Positions 5,412 to 31,108 of a stretch of DNA of 37,586 nt are shown here, piece by piece (the first letter of the stretch is position 1; each line of letters begins with the position of its first letter). Position numbers and translations under genes: made by a program. The notes beneath the pieces were generated by a model. That model saw nothing but the letters and a program-made list of their open reading frames with translations, had not been told where the DNA came from and did no database searches. This stretch comes from Anaerolineales bacterium (GTDB lineage: Bacteria > Chloroflexota > Anaerolineae > B4-G1 > SLSP01): assembly GCA_046541755.1 (NCBI GenBank), contig JBKHCQ010000002.1, positions 1 through 37,586 of the forward strand, in the 5' to 3' direction.

Positions 5412-5489
5412 AGCGCCAGCCTCCTGCTTAAATGGATAGGAATTCACCTGAAAAGCCTCATCTGTTGCTCTTAAGGCTTTCCCTAAATC

Positions 5490-5498
5490 ATTCTAGCA
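5490..5498 (-). promoter_or_regulatory. Candidate extended -10 promoter element (TGcTAGAAT) for the giant adhesin gene
   Basis: Minus strand reads TTTTGCTAGAATGATT in the AT-rich 280-bp gap, ~80 nt upstream of ATG 5411. No convincing -35. Confidence 0.3.
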
Positions 5499-12824: not shown

Positions 12825-12864
12825 CGCAAAGCCTCCTTGTTTGTGGTATGGATCACAGCTCTAT

Positions 12865-13084
12865 AGGTGTGACGTTTGATTGTAGGAAAAGATGAACTTG
12901 CGCCGCCTGCGCCTGCGGATGAATCGCAGGCTAAAAGCTAAAGTCGGCTAAAGACCAACTGAAAGACAGAAATCCACGGGAAAATCAAGTCAACTTTAGT
13001 TGACCTGCGCTTCTTAGCCGGGGATTTCAATCTTAGGCACGGGGCGCGGCGGGATGTTTTCCGACGATCAGCCGTCGCTCCCCA
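12865..13084 (+). repeat. Multi-hairpin dispersed repeat, family 1, copy A (slightly decayed)
   Basis: ~220 bp. Aligns end to end with the reverse complement of 31294-31518 (roughly nine of ten positions identical by eye) and with 37208-37299. Contains serial palindromes: GCCTGCG-n7-CGCAGGC, GTCGG-n7-CC(g/a)AC, AGTCAAC-n4-GTTGAC, GCCGGG-n9-..., CGACG-n6-CGTCG. Confidence 0.85.
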
Positions 13085-13171
13085 GCTCTATTATCCTCCT
13101 CCAGATTCCCAAATGATGAATGATGGGGGAATTTCTCGCAACCAATAATTCTCTCGCGACCGATACCCACA

Positions 13172-14476: not shown

Positions 14477-14485
14477 ACGCGCCCC

Positions 14486-15703: not shown

Positions 15704-15730
15704 GCTTTCCCTTCCTTTGCAGCTTCTCGC

Positions 15731-15770
15731 ATCTTGCCTTATCTCGCCTCATCTTGCCTTATCTTGCCCC
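15731..15770. repeat. Four phased 10-bp direct repeats (ATCTYGCCYY) in an 81-bp intergenic gap
   Basis: atcttgcctt/atctcgcctc/atcttgcctt/atcttgcccc read directly from the sequence. Lies between stop 15785 and start 15703. Confidence 0.8.
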
Positions 15771-15784
15771 TCATCACGCGCGCG

Positions 15785-16831
15785 TTACTCCTCAAAATAT
15801 GCCGCCGTTTTAATCGGCGGCAGTTCAAGCACGCGAAAAGATTCCCAGGAAATCTCGCCTATCAGATCGTCTTCCGCTAACACGCCCGCCCACGACTGAT
15901 CGGGCTTGCCGTATAATCCCTCGCCATAGAGAACCAGGGAATTCGCCGCAAAATCGCCCACATAGGCGCCATATTCCTGTAAAGCGCGGGCGATGATTTT
16001 GGCGGCCTCCGATAGCTCCAGCGTCTCGACGTCAATCGTAGGATCAAGTTGGAGACGTCCGCCCATAGGAATGCCATGCTCGTCGCCGTAGGCATCATAG
16101 GCTGTGCTGGCCGGATAGACATAGACGCCGGGCCTCGGGGCGTCGTACGCTATCACCAGGGCATGATCGATGTATCCTCGCTGTATCTCTTCCCATCGGA
16201 TCAACCCGGCCAGCAGGGGAAAGCCGCTGGCTCGCGCGCTGCCGATGCCCTCCGGCTGCACACCGTCGCCCTCCAGATCGAAGAGATAGCCCCACTCCAC
16301 CACCCATCCCCCATCCCGCGGCCTGGCCCGAAACATATCCCACGAGAGATCGCGGTACAAATCCACTACGACCATATGAGCATCATCCGCCGGATCGGGC
16401 ATCGCGTCATCCGGGATGGGGATATCCTCCCCAAAGCCGGCGCCGCAGACTTCCCAGGCGTTATCGCAGGGGACATCATAGATGGGCGTATGAGCATCGG
16501 CGTAATACACCGGGATCGTCCAATCATCCAAGTTGATCCAAAATCCGCCGCCGCCGCTGGTTTCCAGCGTGGCGATCATCGCATCGGAATTGGGATCGAT
16601 GGCGGGATCGGGGCCGATGGGGACGTTCCAAGGGCTGTCGGGACTGAATAGTTGCCAAACCTTCACGCCGCCTCGAACGACGGGTAAATATGCTTGGGGC
16701 GTCAGTTCAACTTCAAAGGCCGCGGGGGCGACCGCGGCAAACTCGGATGCTGTATCGGAGAGCGATGTGATGCTAATAGCCAACAAACCTATGACAACGA
16801 CTAAAGTAAAAATCTTCTGGGCGTCCATCAT
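15785..16831 (-). CDS. Hypothetical secreted/membrane-anchored protein (no family recognised)
   Basis: 348 aa. N-terminal hydrophobic anchor IFTLVVVIGLLAISITSL. Acidic, Trp/Gly-rich body (…SARASGFPLLAGLIRWEEIQRGYIDHAL…). Coding-like composition and operon position. The start may be the second ATG (16828). Confidence 0.6.
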   Translation of the reverse strand: MMDAQKIFTLVVVIGLLAISITSLSDTASEFAAVAPAAFEVELTPQAYLPVVRGGVKVWQLFSPDSPWNVPIGPDPAIDPNSDAMIATLETSGGGGFWINLDDWTIPVYYADAHTPIYDVPCDNAWEVCGAGFGEDIPIPDDAMPDPADDAHMVVVDLYRDLSWDMFRARPRDGGWVVEWGYLFDLEGDGVQPEGIGSARASGFPLLAGLIRWEEIQRGYIDHALVIAYDAPRPGVYVYPASTAYDAYGDEHGIPMGGRLQLDPTIDVETLELSEAAKIIARALQEYGAYVGDFAANSLVLYGEGLYGKPDQSWAGVLAEDDLIGEISWESFRVLELPPIKTAAYFEE

Positions 16832-16837
16832 TCCTCT

Positions 16838-16915
16838 CTTAGGCAGTTCCAGGAATCAAAACCTCCCCAACCGGATGTTTTTCCTCGGAAAACGGCTTAC
16901 TTTTGGGAGATTTAT
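16838..16915 (-). repeat. Dispersed ~79-nt intergenic repeat, family 3 (copy a); hairpin followed by a U-rich tract
   Basis: Aligns with 30117-30195. Minus strand: ATAAATCTCCCAAAAG...GGTTGGGGAGGTTTTGATTCCTGGAACTGCCTAAG. Both copies start within 30 nt after a minus-strand stop codon. Confidence 0.7.
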
Positions 16916-16943
16916 TCTCTTGGAACGGCCTTATTATTTCTCC

Positions 16944-17966
16944 CTATTTTTGAACTACTGTCAGCAACTGACGCGCTTTCTCCCACCACTCCTGGCGTCG
17001 AATGGTCTGGAGTGCGCGCATCTCGGCCCGAAATCGCGGTAGATCATCCTGCATCTCCAACAGGGCCTCTCGAATGCCCGGGGCGGTGTTATCGATATGA
17101 AGCGTTCCTTGGTTAAAGTAGGTTTCGAGCACCGGCCCCTGGGATGTGATGAGGGGTTTGCCTAACCACAGTGCTTCGTTGGCGCCGCTGAGGAATTGAT
17201 AATCCTCGACGCACAAATCCATCATCACATCGGCGGCCTCTAAAAGGGAAAAGAAGTCCTCTTGCAAGTAGCCGGTGAAGTGGGCGTTTTCCGGCGCGCT
17301 GTCCACGATGGGCTGCCGCGCTCCCGAATAGTCACCGGTGATGTAAAAATGAATCTCCGGCAATTCGCGCGCCGCTTTCAGCACCTCCCGCACCGGCTCA
17401 TCGGGGCTGGCCGAGCTGACCATGACGACGTTCAGGCGGTTCGCGGGCAACGCCAGCGGCTCGGTCACGCGCGGCGCGAGCGGCGGATCCTCCAGGACCA
17501 AGCTGTGCGCGCCCCAATCCATGACCAAATCGCGCAGGTAGTCGTTGGTCACCAGGGTAGTGATCGCCCGGCGCGAGAGGAAGCGGTGCAAGGGCAACGT
17601 CCATTTCCACATAGGATGTAGCAAGGGCGGCGTGTGAGCATCGATGATGAATTTGGCAGGGAAAAACAGACTGTAGATGTACACGGGCAACGCCGCAAAG
17701 ATCGGGGGGTCTTGGATAAATACCAGTTGGTAGCGCGTGCGGATCAGAAAGATGAGCGTGGCGAAAAATTGATAGGGGTATTTGTAGAGCGCGTGGTATT
17801 TTCCCTTTTTGGCCGTGATGTAAATATGCTTCACATCCATCCCCAGGTGCTGCGCGATGATCTGACTTCGCCGCGAGCCATGGGGCGCGCCCCAGACTAG
17901 GAATAAAGCCTTAGCATCTATTTGAATCGACGGTTGAATCGACGGGTCGCTGTTATGCATGGTCAT
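16944..17966 (-). CDS. Glycosyltransferase (GT-B fold, GT4-like)
   Basis: 340 aa. C-terminal ...LSGANEALWLGKPLITSQGPVLETYF resembles the GT-B EX7E region. Overlaps the upstream stop by 14 nt, so translationally coupled. Confidence 0.6.
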   Translation of the reverse strand: MTMHNSDPSIQPSIQIDAKALFLVWGAPHGSRRSQIIAQHLGMDVKHIYITAKKGKYHALYKYPYQFFATLIFLIRTRYQLVFIQDPPIFAALPVYIYSLFFPAKFIIDAHTPPLLHPMWKWTLPLHRFLSRRAITTLVTNDYLRDLVMDWGAHSLVLEDPPLAPRVTEPLALPANRLNVVMVSSASPDEPVREVLKAARELPEIHFYITGDYSGARQPIVDSAPENAHFTGYLQEDFFSLLEAADVMMDLCVEDYQFLSGANEALWLGKPLITSQGPVLETYFNQGTLHIDNTAPGIREALLEMQDDLPRFRAEMRALQTIRRQEWWEKARQLLTVVQK

Positions 17967-18912
17967 CTTCCATCCAGATATTGCCCAAATATTGCGCGGT
18001 ATAGTCTCCCACGGTCATAAATACGACATCAGGAAACGAAGCCATATAAGCCAACAACTCTCGCGTATACTCGATCATCATCTGCCCGCTGGCGCGATAG
18101 AATAGGTTGCGCAATCGCAGCCCGTGCGCGCGGATGAACGAGGGCTTGAAATACTCCGGCTCGATGAAGTCTCGCCATTGTTTCCAGCCCCCCCCGCCCC
18201 CGCCGCTCACAAACTCGGCCGGATGCGCCAGGTAGACGATGGGTTTGCCCGTATGATGGGATTCTATGTACAGTAATCTAAACAGAATTTTTAACATGCC
18301 CACGCTAAAGATCCTGAGTAGCGTGGAGATAAAGGGCGCTCCGGTCGCCGAGACCGGCGCCTCCCAAATGGGCATGTCGCCGGCCCGAAAGACATTATCC
18401 GCGCGCGGACGATAGGGACGGCGCGGCGCGAAGACCCATCCCAGGTTGATGAGATTTGAGCTGACGAAATCTATCCTCTGAGAGCAGACCGAGCTATCGA
18501 CCCGGTAACCGTGTTCGACCAACACCTTCATCGTCGGTGCCCCGACCTTCACACGCGGGGCGCGAAACGCCTGGATCGGGACGCCGGTCACGGCTTGCAG
18601 TTGCTCGGTGGCCTGTCCGATGTACGCGCGCTGCATCGCCTCCGGCATTTGATCGTAGTTCTCCTCGGTGCCGTGGGTCAAGCCGTGACAACCCACCTCG
18701 TGGCCTTGATGTTGCATCCTCGCAATCTCATCGCGATAGGCTTCCGCCGCCGTCGCCGTGACGAAGAAAGTCGCGCGGATCTCATGTCGCCGGCACAGAT
18801 CCATTGCCGTTCTCAGCGCCTGCAACCGGTTGTCCAACGGAATCCATTCGTCGGGGTCCGCGTCCCACGTGATGAGTACCGGCACTGTATGAGAGCTAGC
18901 GGGATGGTTCAC
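17953..18912 (-). CDS. Polysaccharide deacetylase (NodB homology domain)
   Basis: 319 aa, GTG start 18912 in a GTGA overlap with the upstream stop. Motifs VLITWDADPDEW, ATFFVTATAAEAY, GHEVGCHGLTHG and FRAPRVKV. Confidence 0.8.
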   Translation of the reverse strand: MNHPASSHTVPVLITWDADPDEWIPLDNRLQALRTAMDLCRRHEIRATFFVTATAAEAYRDEIARMQHQGHEVGCHGLTHGTEENYDQMPEAMQRAYIGQATEQLQAVTGVPIQAFRAPRVKVGAPTMKVLVEHGYRVDSSVCSQRIDFVSSNLINLGWVFAPRRPYRPRADNVFRAGDMPIWEAPVSATGAPFISTLLRIFSVGMLKILFRLLYIESHHTGKPIVYLAHPAEFVSGGGGGGWKQWRDFIEPEYFKPSFIRAHGLRLRNLFYRASGQMMIEYTRELLAYMASFPDVVFMTVGDYTAQYLGNIWMEDDHA

Positions 18913-20138
18913 AAGTATCTCTCGAACAGGTCGCCCAATTTAGCCGCGCTCTTGTAGATGTTGAACTCTTCTACAATTCGCTTCCGCCCATTCTGGCCCA
19001 ACGTCCGGCGCAACGCTGCATCTTCTATCAACCGCTGGAGAGCATCCGCCAACGCCTCCGCGTCCTTTTCCGGCACGAGCAGGCCGCTCACGCCGTCCTC
19101 GATCAACTCCGGGATGCCCGACACATCGGTGGAGACGGCGGCGATTTCCATCGCCATCGCCTCCATCAGCGAGACCGGGATGCCGTCCACATCGTTGTTG
19201 CGCGCCGTGATGCACGGCAGCGCGAAGATGTCCGCGCGTTCCAGGTACGGGCGCAGATCCTCTTGAAAGACGGCGCCGGGCAATTCGAACGATGCTTGCA
19301 GGTCATATTTCTCAACCAGGTGATCCACAAGCGGCTTCTCAGGGCCGTCGCCGATCAAGGCGCAGTGGAAGGGCACGCCGCGCTCGGCCAAAATCCGGCA
19401 TGCTTCCACCAAGAAAGGCGCGCCTTTGCGCTCCGCCAACTGCGCGACGAAGAGAATCAGCGGGATATCGTTGTCGGGTCGCGCATCGGGCGGCGAAAAA
19501 TCGTCCGGCGCGAGGCCGCAGCGAATGATGTGCATCTTGGCCCCTTGCTCCTCCCCGCCCGGCACGAGATCCATCAGAAATTGACGGCTGAACTGGGAGA
19601 TGACGCTGATGAATCGCGCGCCGTGGACTTTTTCCGGCAACAGGACCCGGTCAATAAAGAAGCTGTTGTGCGCCGTGAAGCTGTAGGAAATATCGAGCAG
19701 GCGCGAAATCACCAGCGCGATGGTCGCGGCGTTGATGGCAAAGTGCGCGTGAATGTGCTCGACGTTCAGACGTTGCATCTCGCGGGCCATGCAGATTGCT
19801 TCGCAGAAGTGGAGGAAGGTGCGCCGGCGATGTGAGATGCTCTCCCCTGGCCGGGTCAACACGAACCACAACGTCTTGAGGTATCGAGCCGGTCGGGTGA
19901 AGAGAAAATGCAAGTGCGCGCCGATGAAATCGGCCCACCGGATGGGTAGAACATAGAAGGTGCTATCCACCAGATGGCGCGATTCCAGCGAGAGCTTGTC
20001 CTTGACGGGTTTCCAGATGGCAAACGTTTCGATGTTGAACCCTCTTTCCTGCAAGGCGAACACTTCCCGGTACACGAACGACTCGGTCAGCGCCGGGAAA
20101 ATATGAGAGACATAGGCGACGGTCTTTTGTGAGTTCAT
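18909..20138 (-). CDS. Glycosyltransferase family 4 (WcaL-like)
   Basis: Track ORF 18909-20144, trimmed to ATG 20138 (ATGA overlap with upstream stop 20135-20137; GAGGGGTGGGG upstream). N-terminus VAYVSHIFPALTESFVYREVFALQERGF. C-terminal ...PCITARNNDVDGIPVSLMEAMAMEIAAVSTDVSGIPELIEDGVSGLLV. Confidence 0.8.
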   Translation of the reverse strand: MNSQKTVAYVSHIFPALTESFVYREVFALQERGFNIETFAIWKPVKDKLSLESRHLVDSTFYVLPIRWADFIGAHLHFLFTRPARYLKTLWFVLTRPGESISHRRRTFLHFCEAICMAREMQRLNVEHIHAHFAINAATIALVISRLLDISYSFTAHNSFFIDRVLLPEKVHGARFISVISQFSRQFLMDLVPGGEEQGAKMHIIRCGLAPDDFSPPDARPDNDIPLILFVAQLAERKGAPFLVEACRILAERGVPFHCALIGDGPEKPLVDHLVEKYDLQASFELPGAVFQEDLRPYLERADIFALPCITARNNDVDGIPVSLMEAMAMEIAAVSTDVSGIPELIEDGVSGLLVPEKDAEALADALQRLIEDAALRRTLGQNGRKRIVEEFNIYKSAAKLGDLFERYL

Positions 20139-21421
20139 CCCCACCCCTCTTTTCGACCTCTATTGGGTTGTTTCGCCAATGGCGGCTTGATCAACCAGCC
20201 GGCATCTCCTCCGTCGGCGGACTGGATCGCTTCCTCGATCCAGAACAGGGGAAGTTTATAGCCACTCAACACCTTACAGCCGAGGCAATACACGGATGCG
20301 CCCTGATGACATCGCAACCGGTAGACCAGATACCGGCCGCTGCGATACGGCGTGCGCGTTTTGCCGCGCGCCAACGTCGGCACGGGTAGACGCGGCGTAT
20401 GTCGGGCGTCCTGTTTCGGCTGCTTCCCGCCGGGCGCATGCACCATCGAGAGATAGCCGACCTCCTTGGCAATGCGCACCGTCAAGTCGTTGTAGCCTCC
20501 ACCCGGCCAACAGACGAAGTTTACCTTTTTCTGCAAGCGAGCTTCGATGATCTCTTTAGACGCGCCCAGTTCATATCGCACGCGAGCTTGATAGGCTTCC
20601 TCGCTCTCCCAGCTTTCCTCAAGTTGATGTCGCGAGCGATAGTGTCGCACCCACTGGAAAAGGCGCGGCCGCCAGCCGCGCTCCTGGAACAGCGCCGGGC
20701 CGCCGCGCGCCTCGACCTGGCGGATTAAAAAATCTGCCAATTTGGGATCCGGGAAATATCGGCGGGCCAGCAATGATTTTCGATAGGTGTAGATAGGCGT
20801 CCCGAAGGGGACAAACGAGGATTGGTCTTCATTGAGCCACAGATATTTGCGCTCCGGTTTGGCATTCCATGCCAGCCAGGGGTAGCCATCCTGGGGATGG
20901 TGAAAATCCACGATATGATGATCGTTAAAGTACCAGGTGTGCGTGATGGTGTGGGATTGCACATCCATCACCCCGGCAGATTCCATCTCCGCTAACTCCG
21001 TCCAAGATAAAAAACCGGTGGTTTCCAAATCCCGCGCCGCGCCGCGTCCCGCTGCTGCATCATCCGAATTAAGACGTCGGGTATCTCTGGGATCGACAAA
21101 GTCTGGGTTGATGAAAATCGTCCCTTCGCAACCGTAACGTTTGAGGATCGGGTAGGCGTACACCCAGTTATCGAGGTATCCATCATCGAATGTGAGTACG
21201 ATCGGATTGGGGGGGAGGGGAGCATCATGCGCCAGATGATCGTACAGATGTTGGAGCGAGATTGTCGTAAAGTTGTGATTGACCAGCGCGCGCACGTGAT
21301 CCTCAAACACGCCCACCGGACACGAGAGATTGCCCCACAACCACTGCTGGTTATCTGAAACGCTGTGATACATCAGCACGGGGACGTGGATTTTGATGTC
21401 GATCGCGGGAGATTTTGCCAT
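20135..21421 (-). CDS. Polysaccharide deacetylase (NodB homology domain plus C-terminal extension)
   Basis: Track ORF 20135-21427 (TTG), trimmed to ATG 21421, 3 nt after the upstream stop. Motifs VPVLMYHSV, IVLTFDDGYLDNW and GTIFINPDFV. Confidence 0.8.
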   Translation of the reverse strand: MAKSPAIDIKIHVPVLMYHSVSDNQQWLWGNLSCPVGVFEDHVRALVNHNFTTISLQHLYDHLAHDAPLPPNPIVLTFDDGYLDNWVYAYPILKRYGCEGTIFINPDFVDPRDTRRLNSDDAAAGRGAARDLETTGFLSWTELAEMESAGVMDVQSHTITHTWYFNDHHIVDFHHPQDGYPWLAWNAKPERKYLWLNEDQSSFVPFGTPIYTYRKSLLARRYFPDPKLADFLIRQVEARGGPALFQERGWRPRLFQWVRHYRSRHQLEESWESEEAYQARVRYELGASKEIIEARLQKKVNFVCWPGGGYNDLTVRIAKEVGYLSMVHAPGGKQPKQDARHTPRLPVPTLARGKTRTPYRSGRYLVYRLRCHQGASVYCLGCKVLSGYKLPLFWIEEAIQSADGGDAGWLIKPPLAKQPNRGRKEGWG

Positions 21422-21423
21422 AA

Positions 21424-22644
21424 TCAAGCCTCGTCTAACGAATGATGGTACAGAGATAGATGTTCGTCCACCTGCACTTGCGCGCTAAACGCCGCCGTTG
21501 CCCGTCGCTTACCCGCCAACCCCATCGCTTGCGCCCGCTGAGGATCGGATAAAAGCTGTGATATCGCCGCCGTGAGTTGCGGAACATCGCCAGGCGGCGT
21601 CAGGCGTCCCATCTCCTCCGAGGTGATGACCTGCACAGTACCGGAGACCTCGGAGGCCACCACCGGCAATCCCGTGGCCAGTGCTTCCAAGAGCGCCATT
21701 GAAAGCCCCTCCCACAAAGAGGGGAGCACGAAGAGATCGCTGGCGGCCAGCAGCGCCGGCACGTCGCGGCGGCTGCCCAAAAAGTGGATGTGCGCATCCA
21801 CATGTAACGCCGCCGCCTGCGACTTCAAGGCCTCCCGCAAAGCGCCATCGCCGATGAAGAGTGCATGCGCGGATGGATGGCGCGCCACAATGGCCGGCAT
21901 CGCCTGGATCATGTACGGGTGTCCTTTGCCTTCTTTCAACGTGCCGACGAGCGCAATCAGACGCGCGGTCTCTTCCAAGCCCAGCTCGCTGCGGATCCCC
22001 GTTGGATCGCCGGGTCGTTCGTACTGCTCAATATCCACCCCGTTACAGATGACGATGACTTTACCGGGAACGGGACGGATGGTCTCCGTGATGGCGTCCC
22101 CCACCTGATCCGAAACCGCGATGAAGCCATCGACGAACCGGGAGGCCCATTTATATAGCAGGTGATGGACAAATCGTTTTGGCCCTAGCAGCCACGTGTG
22201 GCCGGCGAGGTCGGTTTTCGCCAACCTAAATTGGGCGCTGTGAAAGGTCCAGAAAACGGCGCGGACGGCGGTGGTGTACTTGAGAAGTAAGACGAGAAAA
22301 TCGAGCGTGCGCAACAAATGGGTCTGCACCACATCGATGTCATATTGCCGGACGATTTGGGTCAACGCTCGCCAGATACGCATCATATCGCCCAGGAACC
22401 AGGGGAAGGCCAACACGCTGTAGCGACGATCGGGCAGGATATGCACGTCAATGCCCAATTGTTCTATATCCCGCCGCAAGGGGCCATCTTTAAAAGAGCA
22501 GACGACGGGCCGGGCCGCCGGCGCATTCATCGCATTCATGTATTTCACCAGCGTCCGCACGACCTCCTGGGCGCCGCCGATGTTCAGATCTCCAATAATC
22601 TGCAAGACGTTAAGCGATCGTCCACGGCCCTGTGAGGCTGTCAT
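21424..22644 (-). CDS. Glycosyltransferase family 4
   Basis: 406 aa. ATG 22644 in an ATGA overlap with upstream stop 22641. Motifs LNVLQIIGDLNIGGAQEVV and ...FVLPSLWEGLSMALLEALATGLPVVASEVSG (EX7E). Confidence 0.85.
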   Translation of the reverse strand: MTASQGRGRSLNVLQIIGDLNIGGAQEVVRTLVKYMNAMNAPAARPVVCSFKDGPLRRDIEQLGIDVHILPDRRYSVLAFPWFLGDMMRIWRALTQIVRQYDIDVVQTHLLRTLDFLVLLLKYTTAVRAVFWTFHSAQFRLAKTDLAGHTWLLGPKRFVHHLLYKWASRFVDGFIAVSDQVGDAITETIRPVPGKVIVICNGVDIEQYERPGDPTGIRSELGLEETARLIALVGTLKEGKGHPYMIQAMPAIVARHPSAHALFIGDGALREALKSQAAALHVDAHIHFLGSRRDVPALLAASDLFVLPSLWEGLSMALLEALATGLPVVASEVSGTVQVITSEEMGRLTPPGDVPQLTAAISQLLSDPQRAQAMGLAGKRRATAAFSAQVQVDEHLSLYHHSLDEA

Positions 22645-24137
22645 CTCGAAAACCCCCCGGTCATCGTATCAGGAGCGAAATGCATGGCCCATCTGCGCGC
22701 CCAATGCGGCAGACCAAAATCTTCGGGCCGGAGGTACGCTTGCACCATATTGGCAACCAAGCCCAGTGAAAACCACCATGTACCGATGGCATGCCAGAAG
22801 AAGCGCGCATCCATAACCTGGGTGGCTATCAGATAGAAGATGATCGATAACCACAGCAGGACGAGCAAGCGCCAACTCCAAAATCCCTCACGCGGCAAGC
22901 GCGGCAACACCTTGATCGTCAACCGTAGCCACCAGAGCACGGCGAAGAATTGGAGGAAAAACCCCACCAGCCCCATCTCCGCCAAAATCGTGAGATAGGT
23001 GTTGTGCGAGGTCCCCTTATTGATGTCCCAATCTGTGGGCGCGGCACTCCCCACGCGGACCATAAATTTCCAATCGTAACGATCATAGTTGCCGAATCCC
23101 CATCCCCATAAAGGTTTGGCGTAGAACATTTCGCGTCCGGCGTTCGCCAGGACGATGCGACTATCCACTGTATCCTGGACCCCCAGTCGTTTGAGCGCAA
23201 AAGCGACCTCATCTGCCAATATCGTGCCAGATAGAATCCCCGCTGCCACGATGGTGGTGATCAATAGCAAGGACATTGTCTTGGGATACAGAATCAACAG
23301 TCCCAAGAGGACGGGCGCTGACGCGAGCCAACAGCCGCGCGTAAAGGTCAAAAAAATACAGAACAATCCCAAACAGAAGGTCAAAATTAAGAGCCACCGA
23401 ACGATGTCCGATTGGCGATGCATGGCTTCGTGAAAAATGAAGACCATACACACGATCAGCGTATAAGCATAGGGTGTGGGATTAGTGAATGTGCCGGACA
23501 TCCGCGTGCCCATTCTGGCGATATCCCATATCGGAGGCAATGTCTGAGGCGCATAGCGCCCCCAAAAACCGAGCACAATCTCCCCGACGCAGACGAGGAA
23601 CATCGGCAGCACTAACCGCCTCATATCCTCCGCGCCGGGACGCAGGACCCGCACCAACCAATACGCGGCGAACGACACAAACATTCGATCATACAGCTCA
23701 TACAGGTAGATGAGCGGGGAGCTTCGCGTCAGCAGGACAGAAACTCCGGCTACGACGAGATACATCACCATCGAAAGCTCCGCCCATCCCACCTTCACCG
23801 GCTTGTACGCTTTGACCTCCAATGCCCGCGCTAGAATGGCCAATCCCATCGCCAAGGGAATCAAAGCGCGATGGACGAGCCAAAAGACGCGCGATCCGAC
23901 CGTCTCGAAGGGCAAGAACGGCATCAGCACAAACCAGACGATAACGCTCAGCCATGGATAATGATTGAGCAACATCCCCGCCGGCGCGGCGAAGAGGACA
24001 CCCAAGGCGAGCAGCCAAGAGCCTCTGGCGAGCAGCAGGGCGACCAACAAGCCTAATATTCCCCCAAGTAATAGAGGGATGCCAGAGGCTAAAAAACCCC
24101 TATTCCAAAGTTTCCGCATTTCTCTCTCAAAATTCAT
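22641..24137 (-). CDS. O-antigen ligase family membrane protein (probable Wzy-type polymerase)
   Basis: 498 aa, polytopic. Large loop with ...NKGTSHNTYLTILAEMGLVGFFLQFF, typical of the Wzy_C/O-antigen-ligase domain. Confidence 0.75.
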   Translation of the reverse strand: MNFEREMRKLWNRGFLASGIPLLLGGILGLLVALLLARGSWLLALGVLFAAPAGMLLNHYPWLSVIVWFVLMPFLPFETVGSRVFWLVHRALIPLAMGLAILARALEVKAYKPVKVGWAELSMVMYLVVAGVSVLLTRSSPLIYLYELYDRMFVSFAAYWLVRVLRPGAEDMRRLVLPMFLVCVGEIVLGFWGRYAPQTLPPIWDIARMGTRMSGTFTNPTPYAYTLIVCMVFIFHEAMHRQSDIVRWLLILTFCLGLFCIFLTFTRGCWLASAPVLLGLLILYPKTMSLLLITTIVAAGILSGTILADEVAFALKRLGVQDTVDSRIVLANAGREMFYAKPLWGWGFGNYDRYDWKFMVRVGSAAPTDWDINKGTSHNTYLTILAEMGLVGFFLQFFAVLWWLRLTIKVLPRLPREGFWSWRLLVLLWLSIIFYLIATQVMDARFFWHAIGTWWFSLGLVANMVQAYLRPEDFGLPHWARRWAMHFAPDTMTGGFSR

Positions 24138-24154: not shown

Positions 24155-25759
24155 CTATGAGGATATTCGCTCAAAGAGCTGGGATAACGCCGGGATGCGG
24201 CTGACGCGCTCTCGCAAACGCTCCACAACCATCTGATCCTCCTTAGAGAGACCGAGCATCAGCAAAGCGCTGACATAGGTGAACAACAAAATGCCCGCGC
24301 CGATAATCGTTCCCGCCGTTGAATTCCCCGGCAGGAGCCACTGGCGCAGCGCGTACGTGGCCAAAGACGCTAACAAGGCTGCGATCACCGGCTTCACGAA
24401 GCTCCGATTGTACGGTAAGATCCGAAACAAGAAGAACACCTCTAACATCAGCATGAGATTAACGGTAGAAAGACTGATTGTCGTCGCCAGCGCCGCGCCC
24501 ACCACACCCCAGCGCGGGATCAGCCAGAGACTGAGTAGCGCCAGCAGGAGAGATCGCACAGCCGCGTTGAGGATGTTCAGCTTTGTATTGCCCGTCATCG
24601 TGACCATCACGCCGCAAATCCCCACCGCCGCGCCGAACAAATCATTGCCCGCCAAAATGATCAACCCCAGGGAACCGGATACATAGCTGTCGCCAAAAAC
24701 CGAGAGGATAGGACGCGAGAAAAACAGGATCAGCAAAAAGAACGGCAAACTAAAGGTCAGCGTCCATTTGGTCATCGTCTGGAAGAAACGCCTTAATTTT
24801 TGCATATCCCCGCCCGCGTGCAGTTCTGATACCACAGGCATGGACATCATACTGATCGAAGTGTAAAAGGCCGTGCTGACCATGCTCACGCGCGAAGCGA
24901 CGGTGAAGACGCCGGCCGAGGCGACGGTGCTGAGCGCTCCTAACAGCAGGATGCGAAGGTTAGGCCCCAACATCAACAGAAGCTCCGAAAGATAGACTGG
25001 CAACGAGAAATGCAACATCCGGCGCGCATGCCGGCGGCTCACGCGGAGCGGGCGGTTGAGCGGAAATAGCTTGTTCACAAAATAGAGCAGCAGCCCACAG
25101 GATGCTATCGCCCCCATGGAGTAGACCGTCATCGCCTTGACAGCGGTCAATCCCGTGAACGCCAACCCGACAATCAAGAACAGCTTCAAGTAGGTTTGGA
25201 GGATGTTTTGCGCGATGACGCTATATTCCACGCGCTTGAACCCCAGGAGCACAAAACTCGCCACCGTCGCTAAAGTTCCGGCGGGCACGGCAATCGCGAC
25301 GATGCGCAAGAGGGGCACCAAGCTCGGCTCGCGAAATATGATCTCCGCCAGCGGCGCAGCCAATCCAAAACAGAGCAACCCGCCCAGCAAGCTAATCAGC
25401 AGCGGCAGGCCCCCGCCAATCTGGATCGTTTGCCATAACGCTTCGCGATCCCGTTCTGCCGCAAACATCGAGATGAAATGCGTCGTCCCGGTGTTGAGGC
25501 CCAACAAGGCGACGCCCACGACGATGTAAAAGGTAGAATCCGCCACGCTGTATAACCCGTATTGTTCATCTCCCAATAGGCGCGCCAACAAAAACCCGAG
25601 GATGAACCGCCCCGCATACTCCAGCATCGTGCCGATAAAAGAGAGGCTCCCGCCCTTGGCCACCGTCAAGATATTCTGATCCGACGCTGATGATCCAACG
25701 TCAGAATTTTCGTCCAGGAATTTCTCCGGTTGGGATACGGAGGCGTCAGTTATCGTCAT
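24155..25759 (-). CDS. MOP-superfamily polysaccharide flippase (Wzx-like)
   Basis: Track ORF 24155-25852, trimmed to ATG 25759 (ATGA overlap with upstream stop 25756-25758). 534 aa, polytopic, with N-terminal ...VAKGGSLSFIGTMLEYAGRFILGFLLARLLG, typical of the Polysacc_synt family. Confidence 0.8.
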   Translation of the reverse strand: MTITDASVSQPEKFLDENSDVGSSASDQNILTVAKGGSLSFIGTMLEYAGRFILGFLLARLLGDEQYGLYSVADSTFYIVVGVALLGLNTGTTHFISMFAAERDREALWQTIQIGGGLPLLISLLGGLLCFGLAAPLAEIIFREPSLVPLLRIVAIAVPAGTLATVASFVLLGFKRVEYSVIAQNILQTYLKLFLIVGLAFTGLTAVKAMTVYSMGAIASCGLLLYFVNKLFPLNRPLRVSRRHARRMLHFSLPVYLSELLLMLGPNLRILLLGALSTVASAGVFTVASRVSMVSTAFYTSISMMSMPVVSELHAGGDMQKLRRFFQTMTKWTLTFSLPFFLLILFFSRPILSVFGDSYVSGSLGLIILAGNDLFGAAVGICGVMVTMTGNTKLNILNAAVRSLLLALLSLWLIPRWGVVGAALATTISLSTVNLMLMLEVFFLFRILPYNRSFVKPVIAALLASLATYALRQWLLPGNSTAGTIIGAGILLFTYVSALLMLGLSKEDQMVVERLRERVSRIPALSQLFERISS

Positions 25760-28527
25760 GGGGCTTGTGCTCGTCTTCGAGATTGCCGCCAGGCAATACC
25801 CAAAATAGCGCAGAGGGCCAGCCCCGCTGCAATCACCAGGGGAATTAGCCACCCTGGACGACTCACAGCCTCATCCTCCAAAGAAATCTGAGGCGCAATC
25901 TCGGTCGCGGCGGATGGCTCAGGGGCGACCGTGGGGGAAGCCGTGGGATCGCGCGCCGTCGCAGTGGACGTCACGACCTCCGACTCAGAGAGACTCGGCC
26001 CGGTGGTTTGCACATAGTCATCGCCGAACCTCCGCGTATCGACCGTACTAACCGCCCCATCCTTAATCAACGCCAGATTTCCGTTCAAAGCCCAGGATTG
26101 ATGCATCAACACATCCGCGGCCTGCTGCACCCCCTCATCTGTCGTGCCGGTCACGGCCAACAGAGCGCGCGACGCATGCCAAGGCGAAACCATAAGCTGG
26201 ATATATCCCAAACTCGCATTCGAGGGGAAGCGCAACGTCACCCAATCCAACTTCTGCGCGATCACATCCGAGTTCGGCAAGAAAGGCTGCGGCAGTTGAT
26301 TATGTACCTCTTGCAACACGCGGTTCCGCGAAGGTCGCCCTACCGCAATGATATGATGCGCGCTCAACATCGCTGCGGCATCCGGCATGCCCAACGTCAC
26401 CGCCGGCGCGAAACTAAGCCCCCCAGAGGCCTCGCCCAGCATCGCGGCCAACCGCAACGCAGAATCCCACACCTCGCTCTGAGGGCTTTCGGGCAGCGCA
26501 AAGAGCACGTCGGTCAAATCCGGGCGCAGATCAAAAGGATGCGAGAAGAACTTCAGATCCAACACCTGCTCATCGCGCACCGAGTGCTCCAAGTGCAACG
26601 CGGATGTGCTAATGACGCGCAACCAGACATTCGCGTATGCGCACTCGTCCACCGGGAACAGCTCAGACTCTACAGAAATAAGATTAAGCTCGCCATTGCG
26701 GACGAGGGAAAGCGGCAGCACCACATCCACCCGCCCCGCCAACGCGGTTTGAGCGCTGAGCGCGATGGTGGCGATGGTCTCATGGTTAAGGGCCACACTC
26801 AGCGATGATCGATCATAATCTAGGTTCTGGGCATGTCGAAAGGACAGGCTCAGCGTGATCTCGTCGGTGAGATGCCAGCCCACGGGGATATCGAAGTAAT
26901 AGCTGACCCTATCGCTGAATCCATCCAGCATCCCATCTTCATATCCCAAATCGGCTAAGGTCATCTCGGCCCGGGGGGAAATTTGAGGGCGTTCCAATCC
27001 GACGGACGGGCCGCGCACCACTGCATGCGCCCCCGTCAGGCCGGGGAAGCGATTCCGGGAACTTATGGCCCGACTCGCCAGGGCAACCGCCTCATCATGC
27101 AATCCAGTGAGAATCAAAATCGCCTTCGATGGTTCCCAAGGAGATACGAGCATCTGCACCACGCCGTCATACTCCGCAACCCCGCGCCCTTCTTGCACGA
27201 AAAAGTAATCGGATGGGGGGCGCGAGCGCTTTATATTGCCCGCCGTGCCCGCTTCGATTTCTGAAGGCGCGCTCGTGCTCACGGTCGTCGTCAAGGTGCT
27301 CACATTCACCGGATGATCGCGCGCATCGAGCAAGGTCGCCGTGTTCTCCACCATAGCCGCGGTCAGCGCATCGCTCGCGCGCAACACCAACTCCCGATTG
27401 ATCGTCGCCCCCGGAGATAAGGAGGGCAACTCCCAAGCGACCTCTCCCGTCGCTAACTCAACGCAGGCCGGCAAGCAGCGTGTGAATTGTGTGGGGGTCA
27501 GGATCGCATTCACCAGCGAGAAAGATGCGATATGGTCATCCGTCGTATTCGTCACTGTCAAGGTATACGTCAACAGCGCGCCCGGCGCGACGGAGATTGG
27601 CCCCTGAGTGGTCAGGTGCAGTTGCCGCTCCTGCAAGGCGAGCGGCAGAGCGTCTAGCTCATTAAGCGCCCCTATCACTTTGTTGCGCTCTGGCGTGCCG
27701 ACCACAATCCAATGCTCGTACGGCAACGCTGCGCCCTGCGCCGCGATGCGTTCCAGCAGCTCCCCATCGGTCGTGCCGCTAATCAGCACTCCATACGTCA
27801 GCGCGCCCAATCTGGCAGATGTCGCCGCCGCGCCCGCCAACTCCGCCGCCGAGGGATGATCAGGCAACACGAACTGGACGCGATCGGGTGCCACAGCGTT
27901 CTGATAAAAGGGCCGTGGATAAAGCGCCAAGTCCACCTCGATAGGGCGTTGTTCGTAGGCGAGTGCGAAGAAGGAGGTGGCATGGATGGTCGAATATGCA
28001 TTGTGTGGGATGCCGCAGATATAGCTCGCGTCCAAGATCACTTTGATGGTATGCGAGCGTGATGGCAAGGTGTTGAACACCGAGGGCGGCAAATCGATGC
28101 GCAGACGAGCGTGTTCCGCCGCTGCATCATCAATGGGGGCGATGTGCAGAACTTCCCCATCCAACGTGATGATGAGATTCCCAAAAGAAATTGGCTCGAC
28201 GGGTCTCGCTAGGGGATCTGCCGAATGATAGGTATAGCTAAAATCCAGCTCCAAAAAGCTCCCCGCCTGAAGATGCCACCCTTCAGGCAGTCGTAGCGTA
28301 TAATCCGTCGTACTATACGGGCTGCGCAACGTCCTCTCGCCGTATTGCAGATCAGATAGTGCAATCTGCACGCCGGGAAAGGCATCGTCAGGCGGATCAT
28401 GGCTCTCTTGCGCCTCCGTAGAAGAATAAAAAACGCCCAGAACTAGCCAGGTCAGCAAAACCCAAAATATCACAACGCTTCCGATGCGGACGCTGCCCCT
28501 GGATCTCCGCTTTCTCTGCTCACTCAT
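25756..28527 (-). CDS. BcsB-like (cellulose-synthase subunit B family) two-module extracytoplasmic protein with C-terminal TM anchor and an inserted DUF11-like domain
   Basis: Track ORF trimmed from GTG 28566 to ATG 28527 (GGAG upstream). N-terminal signal/anchor VVIFWVLLTWLVLGVF. Module 1: IALSDLQYGERTLRSPYSTTDYTLRLPEGWHLQAGSFLELDFSYTYHS...NLIITLDGEVL...ICGIPHNAYSTIHATSFFALAYE...DLALYPRPFY...HWIVVGTP. Module 2: MTLADLGYEDGMLDGFSDRVSYYFDIPVGWHL...LSLSFRHA...SSLSVALNHETIATI...ECAYANVWLRVISTSALHLEH...LKFFSHPFDL...HHIIAVGRP. Two ...VSPW(E/H)(P/A)S(K/R)A(I/L)L..TG...E(A/G)V..A(S/A) flavodoxin-like ends. LTYTLTVTNTTDD insert between the modules. C-terminal TM GWLIPLVIAAGLALCAILGIAW-RQSRRR. This pattern matches BcsB as I recall it from E. 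coli. Confidence 0.75.
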   Translation of the reverse strand: MSEQRKRRSRGSVRIGSVVIFWVLLTWLVLGVFYSSTEAQESHDPPDDAFPGVQIALSDLQYGERTLRSPYSTTDYTLRLPEGWHLQAGSFLELDFSYTYHSADPLARPVEPISFGNLIITLDGEVLHIAPIDDAAAEHARLRIDLPPSVFNTLPSRSHTIKVILDASYICGIPHNAYSTIHATSFFALAYEQRPIEVDLALYPRPFYQNAVAPDRVQFVLPDHPSAAELAGAAATSARLGALTYGVLISGTTDGELLERIAAQGAALPYEHWIVVGTPERNKVIGALNELDALPLALQERQLHLTTQGPISVAPGALLTYTLTVTNTTDDHIASFSLVNAILTPTQFTRCLPACVELATGEVAWELPSLSPGATINRELVLRASDALTAAMVENTATLLDARDHPVNVSTLTTTVSTSAPSEIEAGTAGNIKRSRPPSDYFFVQEGRGVAEYDGVVQMLVSPWEPSKAILILTGLHDEAVALASRAISSRNRFPGLTGAHAVVRGPSVGLERPQISPRAEMTLADLGYEDGMLDGFSDRVSYYFDIPVGWHLTDEITLSLSFRHAQNLDYDRSSLSVALNHETIATIALSAQTALAGRVDVVLPLSLVRNGELNLISVESELFPVDECAYANVWLRVISTSALHLEHSVRDEQVLDLKFFSHPFDLRPDLTDVLFALPESPQSEVWDSALRLAAMLGEASGGLSFAPAVTLGMPDAAAMLSAHHIIAVGRPSRNRVLQEVHNQLPQPFLPNSDVIAQKLDWVTLRFPSNASLGYIQLMVSPWHASRALLAVTGTTDEGVQQAADVLMHQSWALNGNLALIKDGAVSTVDTRRFGDDYVQTTGPSLSESEVVTSTATARDPTASPTVAPEPSAATEIAPQISLEDEAVSRPGWLIPLVIAAGLALCAILGIAWRQSRRRAQAP

Positions 28528-28542
28528 CTTAATCACTCCATT

Positions 28543-28575
28543 ACTTAGACGGCACTTAGACGGCACTTAGACGGC
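28543..28575. repeat. Perfect 11-bp x3 tandem repeat (acttagacggc) spanning the stop codon of the Wzz-GGDEF gene
   Basis: Read directly from the sequence. Minus strand is (GCCGTCTAAGT)x3, and the first unit supplies Ala-Val-TAA of the upstream gene. Confidence 0.95.
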
Positions 28576-29694
28576 CAGGATCTCCGCCGTTGAACTGCTG
28601 ATCGCGCCAGAGACCGACTCTGAACGCTGCAAGGATTTCTCGGCTTGGGCCAGAAACTCCTCGGGACTCAACTGATTACGTTGATAGGTCGCAACCGCGG
28701 CTCTGCAATTCAAGTCGAGGGCTCCGCCCCCCCTTTCCAATTTGAAGGACATCGAGGTTATCCCCATCTGCAACTCCTCGATAAAGCTCTCAGCCTCTTC
28801 CTTCCGCAGGTCGGGGAGGAGTATGGCGAACACGGTACCCTTCGTCCGCGCTATCACATCCTCCGTCCGTATATGGCGCATCAAGAACATGGCCGCCCGG
28901 CGGATCACCGCGCTTTGCTCCTGCGGCGAAGAGAGCGCTTCGATTTCCCGGGCGCGATCGATATCGATGCAGGCCAAACTCAAGGCATACGCATTACGCT
29001 CAGCGCGGGCCATCTCCTCCTCTAATCGCTGTTTTAAGAAAGTTCTGTTATATACGCCACTTTCCTCATCCAGGATATTAAACTCGGTTGGGGAGCGCAA
29101 GGGAATTTGGAGGTATTCCAAGAAGAACGCCAATCCGCAGCCCAGCGCCAATCCGAACACCGCGCCCAAGGCTACCTGCATTTTTTCATTGCGCGCCACT
29201 TGATACCCCTCTTCGGGCGCGGAGTCGAGAAGATTCAGATTATAAATTCCCTGAAGCTCTTGAAGATCTTTAACATAGGCCACGGTCTCATCGCCAATCG
29301 TGTTAGCCAAAAGGGAGACGCTTTCGCGATTCCGGCCCTGAACCGTGATTTTCAACAGGTTTGTCCCCGACAAAGGGTAAGCATCAATCGAGAAATACGC
29401 CATTTGGGACATGGATAATCCCAACTTATCCGCCACCCGCCCGCGAACTAAGCGGCTCAGGGCTATTTCCGCGTAAGTGTTACCGATCTCGGTCTGCCGA
29501 CTTAAAATATCGACCCCGTACACCACGCTGCCGGCGAGAGAGGGATTAGGCACGATGACAAAGGTGACGGTGGCTTCGTAAATCGGGGGCTGCATGAATG
29601 TAAATACGATCGTGGCAGTTAAGGTGATCACGAAAACAGATAAGACGATCCACCACTTTCGCAACAGAATCAGCATATAGATCTTCAGTTCCAT
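28567..29694 (-). CDS. Wzz/PCP-type polysaccharide co-polymerase fused to a degenerate GGDEF domain with intact RxxD I-site (predicted c-di-GMP receptor)
   Basis: Track ORF 28567-29790, trimmed to ATG 29694 (the upstream part lies in a dispersed repeat). 375 aa. Wzz N-terminus ELKIYMLILLRKWWIVLSVFVITLTATIVFTFMQPPIYEATVTFVIV. TM2 MQVALGAVFGLALGCGLAFFLEYL. Then DEESGVYNRTFL...LACIDIDRAREIEA...HIRTEDVIARTKGTVFAILLPD. Confidence 0.8.
   Translation of the reverse strand: MELKIYMLILLRKWWIVLSVFVITLTATIVFTFMQPPIYEATVTFVIVPNPSLAGSVVYGVDILSRQTEIGNTYAEIALSRLVRGRVADKLGLSMSQMAYFSIDAYPLSGTNLLKITVQGRNRESVSLLANTIGDETVAYVKDLQELQGIYNLNLLDSAPEEGYQVARNEKMQVALGAVFGLALGCGLAFFLEYLQIPLRSPTEFNILDEESGVYNRTFLKQRLEEEMARAERNAYALSLACIDIDRAREIEALSSPQEQSAVIRRAAMFLMRHIRTEDVIARTKGTVFAILLPDLRKEEAESFIEELQMGITSMSFKLERGGGALDLNCRAAVATYQRNQLSPEEFLAQAEKSLQRSESVSGAISSSTAEILAV
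28600..29082 (-). other. Degenerate GGDEF domain: active-site position KGTVF (28828-28842), I-site RTED (28858-28869)
   Basis: Gapless by-eye alignment to the PleD GGDEF domain. There are 29 residues between IDID and RxxD in both, and RxxD is followed by 5 residues and then the GG(D/E)EF position. The FKxxND stretch is replaced by AREIEA. Confidence 0.75.
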
Positions 29695-30204: not shown

Positions 30205-30885
30205 CTACAGGGCGCCGGCGCCAGAGAAGACCGAAAGAGCCGTCAACCACAAGATTTTCAAATCGAGCCACAAGCAGCAATCTTCCACATATTCTACGTC
30301 GTGATGAGCAATGTCATCGAAGGAAATCGTGCTGCGCCCCATAACCTGCGCTAATCCTGTGATGCCGGGCAGGACGTTCAGGCGTTGATAGTGCCACGGC
30401 TCGTAAGCTTCTACTTCCCAAGGAACGTTGGGCCGTGGCCCGACGATGCTCATCTCGCCCCGCAGCACATTGATGATCTGAGGCAGCTCATCCAAGCTGG
30501 TCTTGCGCAAGATCGCCCCTACCTTGGTGATCTGAGAAGCTTTGATCGGCTTGAAAATCGTGTGGCCCTCTTCAATCTTCCCTTCAACTTCCCCCTTCAC
30601 AAACGCCTGCATATACGCCCGGTGCTCGCGGTCATCCAAATTGTGCTGCATAGTGCGAAATTTAAACATTCGGAATGGATTCCCATCCTTCCCGATGCGC
30701 TCCTGAATGAAAAACGCCGGGCCGGGAGAATCCAATCGAATGGCCACCGCACACACAGCCATCACAGGTAGCAAAACAGGCAATAGCAAAAGACAAATCA
30801 CCCAATCGAAAAGCCGTTTAGCTACCTCGTATGGCCTTGGATAAGACCATACCTTTGTTTGTTGTTGAATAAAAACCGAGTCCAT
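30205..30885 (-). CDS. Bacterial sugar transferase (initiating polyprenyl-phosphate glycosyl-1-phosphate transferase, small monotopic PGT)
   Basis: Track ORF (TTG 30903) trimmed to ATG 30885, with AAGGAGG 6 nt upstream. Motifs KRLFDWVICLLLLPVLLPVMAVCAVAIRLDSPGPAFFIQERIGKDGNPFRMFKFRTM, DELPQIINVLRGEMSIVGPRP and LPGITGLAQV are hallmark Bac_transf motifs. 226 aa. Confidence 0.9.
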   Translation of the reverse strand: MDSVFIQQQTKVWSYPRPYEVAKRLFDWVICLLLLPVLLPVMAVCAVAIRLDSPGPAFFIQERIGKDGNPFRMFKFRTMQHNLDDREHRAYMQAFVKGEVEGKIEEGHTIFKPIKASQITKVGAILRKTSLDELPQIINVLRGEMSIVGPRPNVPWEVEAYEPWHYQRLNVLPGITGLAQVMGRSTISFDDIAHHDVEYVEDCCLWLDLKILWLTALSVFSGAGAL

Positions 30886-31108
30886 GGTACCCTCCTTTCG
30901 CAAAACAACACTTGACTCTCCTGAAAAACAAAGATCTCAAAAGTGGTTCCCGCGCTCACCTGAGCTTTTTCAGTAGAGCCGACTGAAATGGCGAAAAACC
31001 TCCTTTCACCTAGCGTATCGACAGCCCAAATTCATCGAACTGCCCATACGTGCGTCTCTGCCTCCCCCCTACTGACTGAATTTTACAAAAAATGTATGAA
31101 GAGCGAGT

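Follow-up and report, generated by a model that had tools for sequence, protein, structure and literature searches.

BcsB is generally described as an obligate partner protein of BcsA, the cellulose synthase, and the canonical protein guides the cellulose chain away from the membrane. Two main routes to bacterial polysaccharides, the synthase-dependent and the Wzx/Wzy-dependent one, are presented in teaching as distinct toolkits. In a systematic survey of synthase-dependent operons, bcsA and bcsB were treated as a pair that always goes together (PMC7112194). Canonical BcsB contains four domains (D1-D4) in the order jellyroll, flavodoxin-like, jellyroll, flavodoxin-like, followed by a C-terminal anchor; in E. 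coli BcsB, an amphipathic helix lies directly ahead of this anchor (PMC8892547). Here we analyse a BcsB-family gene for a 923-residue protein (25756..28527, stop codon included, minus strand) in a 37,586-nucleotide stretch of an Anaerolineales bacterium. The stretch is a whole contig (37.6 kb, JBKHCQ010000002.1) and is referred to as the window. The contig encodes no BcsA, PilZ or family 2 glycosyltransferase (GT2) partner. We lean towards the view that the protein is the outer-face polysaccharide-binding partner of a cyclic-di-GMP (c-di-GMP)-responsive Wzz/Wzy machine in a Wzx/Wzy operon of Anaerolineae.

Receptors of c-di-GMP such as PelD, PssE and YdaK are recognised by a GGDEF domain that is catalytically dead but retains its I-site. 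PelD of the Pel system is a membrane-anchored dead GGDEF protein with an RxxD motif, encoded in an exopolysaccharide (EPS) operon, and resembles the fusion of Wzz with a degenerate GGDEF domain (GGDEF*) encoded beside the window gene. It differs from this Wzz-GGDEF protein in combining GAF with GGDEF and in lacking a Wzz domain, and the Pel system is synthase-dependent and has no BcsB-like protein. In the Listeria pssABCDE and B. subtilis ydaJKLMN operons, as in the window, a BcsB-like gene stands beside a degenerate-GGDEF receptor with an I-site in an EPS operon of a monoderm. We take PssD and YdaN to be the BcsB-like proteins of these operons. PssC is a GT2, PssE and YdaK are degenerate-GGDEF I-site receptors, and YdaM and YdaN have been termed putative glycosyltransferases (PMC5422440). 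The window differs in that its GGDEF* is fused to a Wzz domain of the polysaccharide co-polymerase (PCP) type and in that the operon is of the Wzx/Wzy type, with a phosphoglycosyl transferase (PGT), Wzx, Wzy and GT4 glycosyltransferases. A membrane GT2 of the PssC/YdaM type is absent from the window and from the clade of relatives to which it belongs (clade B below). Gram-positive systems of PCP-2b and bacterial tyrosine kinase (BY-kinase), such as CpsC/CpsD and CapA/CapB, share with the window a CpsC-type PCP (TIGR01006) in a Wzx/Wzy operon. In the window, however, the cytoplasmic end of the PCP is GGDEF*, its companion has the BcsB fold, and no BY-kinase was found.

The gene product is a single, complete BcsB-family protein. 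The Pfam BcsB model (PF03170) matches it with E=7.1e-42 and 144 bits (cut-off 21). The NCBIfam BcsB equivalog cut-off is not reached (best 69 bits versus 750), and a single-sequence phmmer search of the product against the PDB gave no match, so that an ortholog profile was needed. With the profile of 24 orthologs, chains of E. coli BcsB are matched at E~1e-14, and BcsB of R. sphaeroides at E~0.006. An AlphaFold2 model made from the ortholog alignment has a mean pLDDT of 71.6, with folded domains mostly at 80-94. Foldseek aligns this model to E. coli BcsB (6yg8/9fmt/7l2z) over ~850 columns, with E-values down to 6e-31, probability 1.0 and TM(target) of 0.5-0.58. In the family alignment, the product and E. 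coli BcsB are collinear, with residues 60 and 915 of the product facing E. coli residues 80 and 767 at the two ends. A preliminary description of this DNA had proposed a BcsB-like protein and named profile and structure comparisons as checks; the PF03170 and Foldseek matches bear it out. The four-domain fold, the single C-terminal anchor and the PF03170 match are shared with BcsB of the BcsA-BcsB complexes, both from E. coli and from R. sphaeroides (4hg6).

All domains are given on the minus strand. An N-terminal hydrophobic segment (residues 15-33, 28429..28485), found by hydropathy scan and helical in the model, is a signal peptide or signal anchor. The first jellyroll carbohydrate-binding domain (D1, residues 52-193, 27949..28374) is built of beta strands with pLDDT 80-94 and corresponds to residues ~80-203 of E. 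coli BcsB. The first flavodoxin-like domain is split. Its first part (D2a, residues 216-304, 27616..27882) shows alternating strands and helices and aligns to the second flavodoxin-like domain of the same protein. Its second part (D2b, residues 446-497, 27037..27192) contains the VSPWEPSKAILILTG strand-helix, which aligns to the VSPWHASRALLAVTG element of the second flavodoxin-like domain; this part aligns to residues 282-334 of E. coli BcsB. The second jellyroll carbohydrate-binding domain (D3, residues 516-650, 26578..26982) is defined by profile, model and alignments, and the second flavodoxin-like domain (D4, residues 674-835, 26023..26508) by model, alignment and a match to NCBIfam BcsB positions 609-704.

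The halves of the protein are still recognisably alike in sequence, a difference from canonical BcsB. With the D2 insert removed, module 1 (residues 51-304 and 446-497) matches module 2 (residues 516-835) with E=9e-17 in BLASTP, and with a probability of 99.9% and E=5e-37 in hhalign. The repeat motifs listed in the preliminary description are all found in the translation, and the repeat that it described as the BcsB pattern occurring twice is real. The protein is not doubled, however: the two modules together make up the D1-D4 of one canonical BcsB. Since the layout is the normal one and the product is collinear with a single E. coli BcsB, a fusion of two BcsB proteins is ruled out.

The insert (residues 305-445, 27193..27615) comprises a CLIPPER/DUF11-like immunoglobulin (Ig) beta-sandwich (residues ~312-401) and a disordered linker, as indicated by alignment, Pfam and the all-beta model. 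It had been placed between the modules, but the family alignment and the internal repeat show that it interrupts the first flavodoxin-like domain. The 141-residue insert has no counterpart in the alignment in E. coli BcsB or in the two other clades of relatives (A and C, below). The DUF11 match (PF01345) is weak in the window protein (E=0.004, 17.9 bits, cut-off 24.6), where the model is all-beta over residues 318-400; most orthologs have a precomputed PF01345 match. DUF11 was recently renamed CLIPPER; it is an Ig domain of the CnaA-like kind, found characteristically in the stalks of adhesins (bioRxiv 10.1101/2025.04.25.650565). The isopeptide-forming Lys described there is not evident in the insert sequence, as judged without a formal alignment.

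D4 is followed by a 56-residue linker rich in T, S, A, P and E (residues 836-891, 25855..26022) with pLDDT of about 30. It separates D4 from the anchor and takes the place of the amphipathic helix of E. coli BcsB. The C-terminal region (25759..25854) consists of an RPGW motif, the transmembrane (TM) anchor and a basic tail, WRQSRRRAQAP. The hydropathy peak covers residues 894-912 and the helix in the model spans residues 894-921, in agreement with the single C-terminal TM helix and basic tail noted earlier. This layout of RPGW-type motif, anchor and tail is common to most representatives of the family. Among the relatives, a ~700-residue BcsB-like subgroup is anchorless (P0129, P0130, P0138, P0139, P0141, P0149, P0150 and P0176); nearly all of its members end in RWW, one in NWW and one in YWW.

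The gene position is as previously given, on the minus strand. The ATG at 28527 is preceded by GGAG 8 nt upstream and yields the 923-residue product; a GTG at 28566 is another possible start and would yield 936 residues. Reading of the junctions confirms that the TGA of the gene overlaps the ATG of a Wzx flippase gene in the sequence ATGA, and that 39 nt separate the TAA of the Wzz-GGDEF gene from the ATG of the BcsB-like gene. Both neighbours are those named in the preliminary description. Near the upstream junction lies a perfect 11-nt tandem repeat of three GCCGTCTAAGT copies (28543-28575, minus strand, Tandem Repeats Finder score 66) that starts in the last Wzz-GGDEF codons. It gives TAA in all three frames just ahead of the ribosome-binding site of the BcsB-like gene, and was found in none of 115 related loci.

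The Wzz-GGDEF gene (28567..29694, minus strand) encodes 375 residues from MELK. Its Wzz (PCP) domain is detected by Pfam (E=5e-11) and by the CpsC-type PCP model TIGR01006 (E=5e-14), and its GGDEF domain by Pfam (E=3e-19). The protein has two TM helices, and the GGDEF domain lies C-terminal to the second; by the usual PCP topology, this domain would be cytoplasmic. The GG(D/E)EF motif is replaced by KGTVF in the window and by DGTIF, DDTIF or DNTLF in orthologs. The I-site RxxD (RTED) is kept, five residues upstream of the degenerate motif. No GG(D/E)EF is intact in any of 55 Wzz-GGDEF homologs, drawn from all related loci; the Asp of RxxD is found in all 55 and its Arg in 53. The domain had been called degenerate and likened to the receptors of the Listeria pss and B. 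subtilis yda operons, which fits these data. No P-loop kinase-like open reading frame (ORF) that could be a BY-kinase partner is present among the scanned window ORFs.

The Wzx flippase (24155..25759) matches Pfam Polysacc_synt, Polysacc_synt_3 and MatE. It is followed by a Wzy-type polymerase (Wzy_C, 22641..24137, Pfam E=4e-17), and the initiating PGT (Bac_transf, 30205..30903, Pfam E=2e-61, TIGR03025 E=5e-80) stands at the head of the cluster. These genes, like every gene from 30903 to the window start, lie on the minus strand. A complete Wzx/Wzy-pathway set of PGT, Wzx, Wzy and Wzz is contained in one cluster, and the same set is found in relatives. A Pfam scan of all large ORFs in the window detected no GT2 of any kind, and three GT2 hidden Markov models (HMMs) run against all six-frame open segments of at least 60 residues in the window found nothing at E<=10. 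The absence of a GT2/BcsA-type synthase from the window, noted earlier, holds in both searches.

While the fold and architecture, the conserved gene order, the degenerate GGDEF with its I-site and the lack of a GT2 in the contig and in clade relatives are established, the physical partnership, the binding of c-di-GMP and the chain-guiding role are inferred. In the mechanism we propose, c-di-GMP would bind the GGDEF* of Wzz, by which the Wzz/Wzy polymerisation complex would be switched or assembled. Anchor and stalk would tether the BcsB-like protein at the outer face of the membrane, where its pair of jellyroll domains would bind the growing chain, probably partly de-N-acetylated, and the protein would hold or guide this chain off the membrane and through the wall of monoderm-type cells, without a processive GT2 synthase. 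A broader version is more tentative, and we consider it possible rather than probable: BcsB-fold proteins of Chloroflexota, Wzy and Wzz-GGDEF* might form a three-part machine, in which a dead, c-di-GMP-binding GGDEF would replace the kinase partner and BcsB would be the outer-face chain guide.

A word-indexed search, even with a profile, reached only the close clade of the window protein, and its extra matches were DUF11-repeat proteins. There are 32 clusters of ~900-residue orthologs with 41-73% identity, and those named are metagenome-assembled genomes (MAGs) of Anaerolineae. More than 100 positions are invariant in orthologs down to 41% identity, and many more are near-invariant. A full HMMER scan gave 1675 representatives at E<=1e-30, a number inflated by DUF11-repeat proteins. 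The related loci comprise 23 from genomes, 80 from metagenomes (seeded with ~750-residue relatives) and 11 obtained by exact protein look-up; nearly all are MAGs or metagenome contigs. Neighbouring ORFs were labelled by iterated HMMs.

In clade B, which contains the window (~900 residues, CLIPPER insert), the gene directly before the BcsB-like gene is Wzz-GGDEF in 11 of 14 loci, and the gene directly after it is Wzx or Wzy in 9 of 14. No membrane GT2 is found within +-10 kb in any of 15 clade B loci; a few have a small soluble GT2 of 319-331 residues. Clade C (28-33% identity, nine loci) has the core Wzz-GGDEF, Wzy, BcsB, BcsB in 9/9, and in most of these loci the tandem BcsB genes are followed by a GT4, a deacetylase-like ORF (an HMM label, without Pfam check) and a second GT4. 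A membrane GT2 is found in only one clade C locus, L024. The two tandem paralogs of clade C (L019-L027, e.g. L027:9041-11347 and 11404-14028) differ in their C termini: the first (768 residues) has a P/T-rich tail and no TM anchor, while the second (~860 residues) has an RPSW motif and an anchor. The tandem arrangement suggests a hetero-oligomer. A reverse search from Wzz-GGDEF homologs on long contigs found a gene for BcsB with CLIPPER directly downstream in three of four cases.

Because the clade B proteins are full-length and share more than 100 invariant positions with no membrane GT2 beside them, and because three of the four long Wzz-GGDEF contigs carry BcsB with CLIPPER downstream, Wzz-GGDEF and Wzy/Wzx appear to be the conserved partners. 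Decay has also to be considered, with the gene as a functionless relic of a former synthase-dependent system. While the missing GT2 partner of its relatives would agree with this, the ORF is full-length, the four domains and the anchor are all retained, and synteny is conserved. We rejected a relic on the sequence conservation among orthologs, and regard it as very improbable.

Several observations weigh against our preferred reading of a Wzz/Wzy partner. The first group concerns clade A (~750 residues, no insert, 79 loci), whose typical operon consists of Wzz-GGDEF, Wzy, Wzx, GT4s, a ~400-residue GT2 and BcsB; in an alternative layout, a divergent GT2 adjoins the Wzz-GGDEF-BcsB pair. The GT2 is present in 45 of the 79 loci, and in 16 of the 21 that have at least 6 kb on both flanks. 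By combining Wzz-GGDEF*, a Wzx/Wzy operon and a BcsB-like protein with a PgaC-like GT2, the clade A loci that carry this enzyme recreate the pss/yda triad of GT2, BcsB-like protein and GGDEF*. The preliminary claim of a BcsB-like protein without a synthase thus stands for the contig and the 15 clade B loci, but not for the wider family.

The clade A GT2 is one coherent, uncharacterised family of ~400 residues, in which a GT-A domain is framed by one N-terminal and two to three C-terminal TM helices, and almost always adjoins a BcsB-like or Wzz-GGDEF gene. In place of the Q(Q/R)xRW of processive synthases stands an invariant RRxR(I/L/M)xAG. Among NCBIfam models, PgaC/IcaA fits the family best (full length, E~1e-24, below the cut-off), and its best solved relative is a 356-residue GT2 (6yv7, E=7e-40), compared with E~3e-15 for BcsA. 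Judged from sequence, the topology is synthase-like and the acceptor-stacking Trp is replaced. It took the metagenome scan and iterated HMMs to bring the family to light. E. coli BcsA as a phmmer seed had given no match in the first 26 loci, and candidates from a QxxRW regular expression were rejected as false positives (a pyridoxal-phosphate enzyme, a phosphodiesterase and a peptidase). Members occur across loci L029-L108 (e.g. L051:7430-8641 and L058:204-1415), and one is found in L024 (4607-5818).

In a neighbour-joining (NJ) tree, clades B and C group together, apart from clade A, and within clade C the GT2-bearing locus L024 branches off deepest; the tree is crude and its outgroup very distant, so the polarity of GT2 loss versus gain is only suggestive. 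Since clade A usually carries the GT2, the distribution suggests that this enzyme is ancestral and was lost in the clade of the window, in which case the GT2-less state would be derived and clade-specific. The ancestral partner of the BcsB-like protein may accordingly have been a GT2, given its presence in 16/21 well-flanked clade A loci.

It is therefore to be asked whether the window protein is a classical co-subunit of a processive membrane GT2 synthase encoded elsewhere in the genome, beyond the 37.6-kb contig. The PgaC/IcaA-like GT2 adjoining the BcsB-like or Wzz-GGDEF gene in most clade A loci and the GT2 in the deepest branch of clade C would agree with this. So would PssD and YdaN, the presumed BcsB-like proteins of the pss and yda systems, which are encoded together with a GT2 (PMC5422440). 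However, clade B has no membrane GT2 in any of its loci over the range covered, no remnant is present in any frame of the window, and the gene is still translationally coupled to Wzz-GGDEF and, by the ATGA overlap, to Wzx. Several complete clade A operons also have GT4s only and no GT2 (L032, L044, L055 and L096), which argues that Wzz-GGDEF, Wzy and Wzx are the constant partners rather than the GT2. We consider a distant synthase unlikely, though a serious alternative.

The stalk and one further locus also weigh against a role in the polymerisation machine. The 56-residue flexible segment is unlike the tight membrane-proximal coupling in canonical BcsB. On the fourth long contig of the reverse search, L115, Wzz-GGDEF, Wzy and Wzx are retained, while the position of the BcsB-like gene is taken by an ORF of only 151 residues (L115:8270-8725). 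A QITLGELGHEE motif in this ORF resembles the start of D1, a match that is statistically unsupported (BLASTP E=0.34); the ORF may be a deletion remnant of a BcsB-like gene. Since L115 keeps the operon without the full gene, the BcsB-like protein may be dispensable for the core pathway. The cluster of L115 also holds several sulfotransferases.

These features would suit a membrane-tethered surface lectin that keeps completed exopolysaccharide at the cell surface or connects the polymer with the wall, outside the polymerisation machine. Two jellyroll carbohydrate-binding domains are carried on a flexible stalk, and the CLIPPER/DUF11 insert belongs to an adhesin-stalk type of domain (bioRxiv 10.1101/2025.04.25.650565). 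Longer relatives have N-terminal extracellular extensions, either wall-binding SH3_3 or LysM domains or a beta-propeller, which fit a wall-associated extracytoplasmic role under the preferred reading as well; no fusion to GT2, Wzy or Wzz was found among these relatives. A possible loss in L115 while the rest of the operon stays would be in line with such a lectin as well. On the other hand, the gene keeps its position between Wzz-GGDEF and Wzx/Wzy, its stop codon overlaps the start codon of Wzx, and in all nine clade C loci a BcsB-like gene directly follows Wzy. We therefore regard the lectin as about as improbable as the distant synthase, and retain the Wzz/Wzy partner as the preferred reading.

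No account of the arrangement was found in the open-access literature, which was searched for BcsB with Wzy or GGDEF, BcsB in Chloroflexi, PCP-GGDEF proteins with an I-site and Wzz c-di-GMP receptors. The fold and the components are already known; what is new is the way they are combined, and that BcsB is apparently used without a synthase. Elements of both toolkits occur together in the window locus and in over 100 related loci: the BcsB fold, the receptor-type Wzz fusion, Wzy, Wzx and, in some lineages, a PgaC-like GT2. The BcsB fold thus probably also works in another polymer-assembly pathway. If the proposed role is correct, it provides a testable model for direct c-di-GMP control of Wzy-dependent polymerisation, and shows a role of the BcsB fold other than synthase activation. 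The more tentative three-part machine would amount to a direct post-translational gating of the Wzx/Wzy pathway by c-di-GMP, and the GT2-less clade of the window would then be a natural proof that the fold works without a synthase. Anaerolineae are filamentous and common in sludge and sediments, and the locus points to an uncharacterised EPS system in this group.

The gene order of the cluster is PGT, Wzz-GGDEF, BcsB-like, Wzx, Wzy, GT4s and deacetylases, a beta-helix (NosD-like) protein and a FemAB-like protein, followed by a GNAT acyltransferase, two CapK-like ligases and a surface protein of more than 1830 residues at the contig edge. The sugar-assembly block (13172..22644, minus strand) contains, by Pfam, three GT4 glycosyltransferases, three polysaccharide deacetylases and two ORFs without a Pfam match, and is syntenic in the close relative L109. 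Between 5692 and 21427 (minus strand) lie modification genes: the three deacetylases, the FemAB-like protein, the GNAT acyltransferase and the two CapK-like ligases (weak AMP-binding match). Their predicted functions suggest a de-N-acetylated polymer, maybe also modified with amino acids. The surface protein ORF (3-5492, minus strand) is directly downstream of the EPS cluster and runs off the contig start; it matches TSP3, PKD, He_PIG, cadherin and transglutaminase-core domains.

Some clade B loci show further variation. In many of them the PGT is directly preceded by a conserved ORF of ~285 residues without a Pfam match (e.g. L001:1546-2403, L004:6923-7783, L110:4774-5631, L113:8431-9288 and L114:8254-9111), which neither the window nor its close relative L005 has. 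This ORF is picked up by the iterated Wzz/GGDEF HMMs and may be a second, shorter Wzz/GGDEF paralog. Only in L007 (12527-14584) and L018 (12602-14638) is the BcsB-like gene followed by a P-loop protein of ~680 residues (CbiA/AAA_31/ParA), possibly a regulator resembling BY-kinases; no Wzz-GGDEF gene lies adjacent in L007. In L011 (12641-16379), Wzy_C comes after the BcsB-like gene, and an ABC-2 permease and an ABC ATPase stand next in the place of Wzx; here the same BcsB-like protein goes with another export route.

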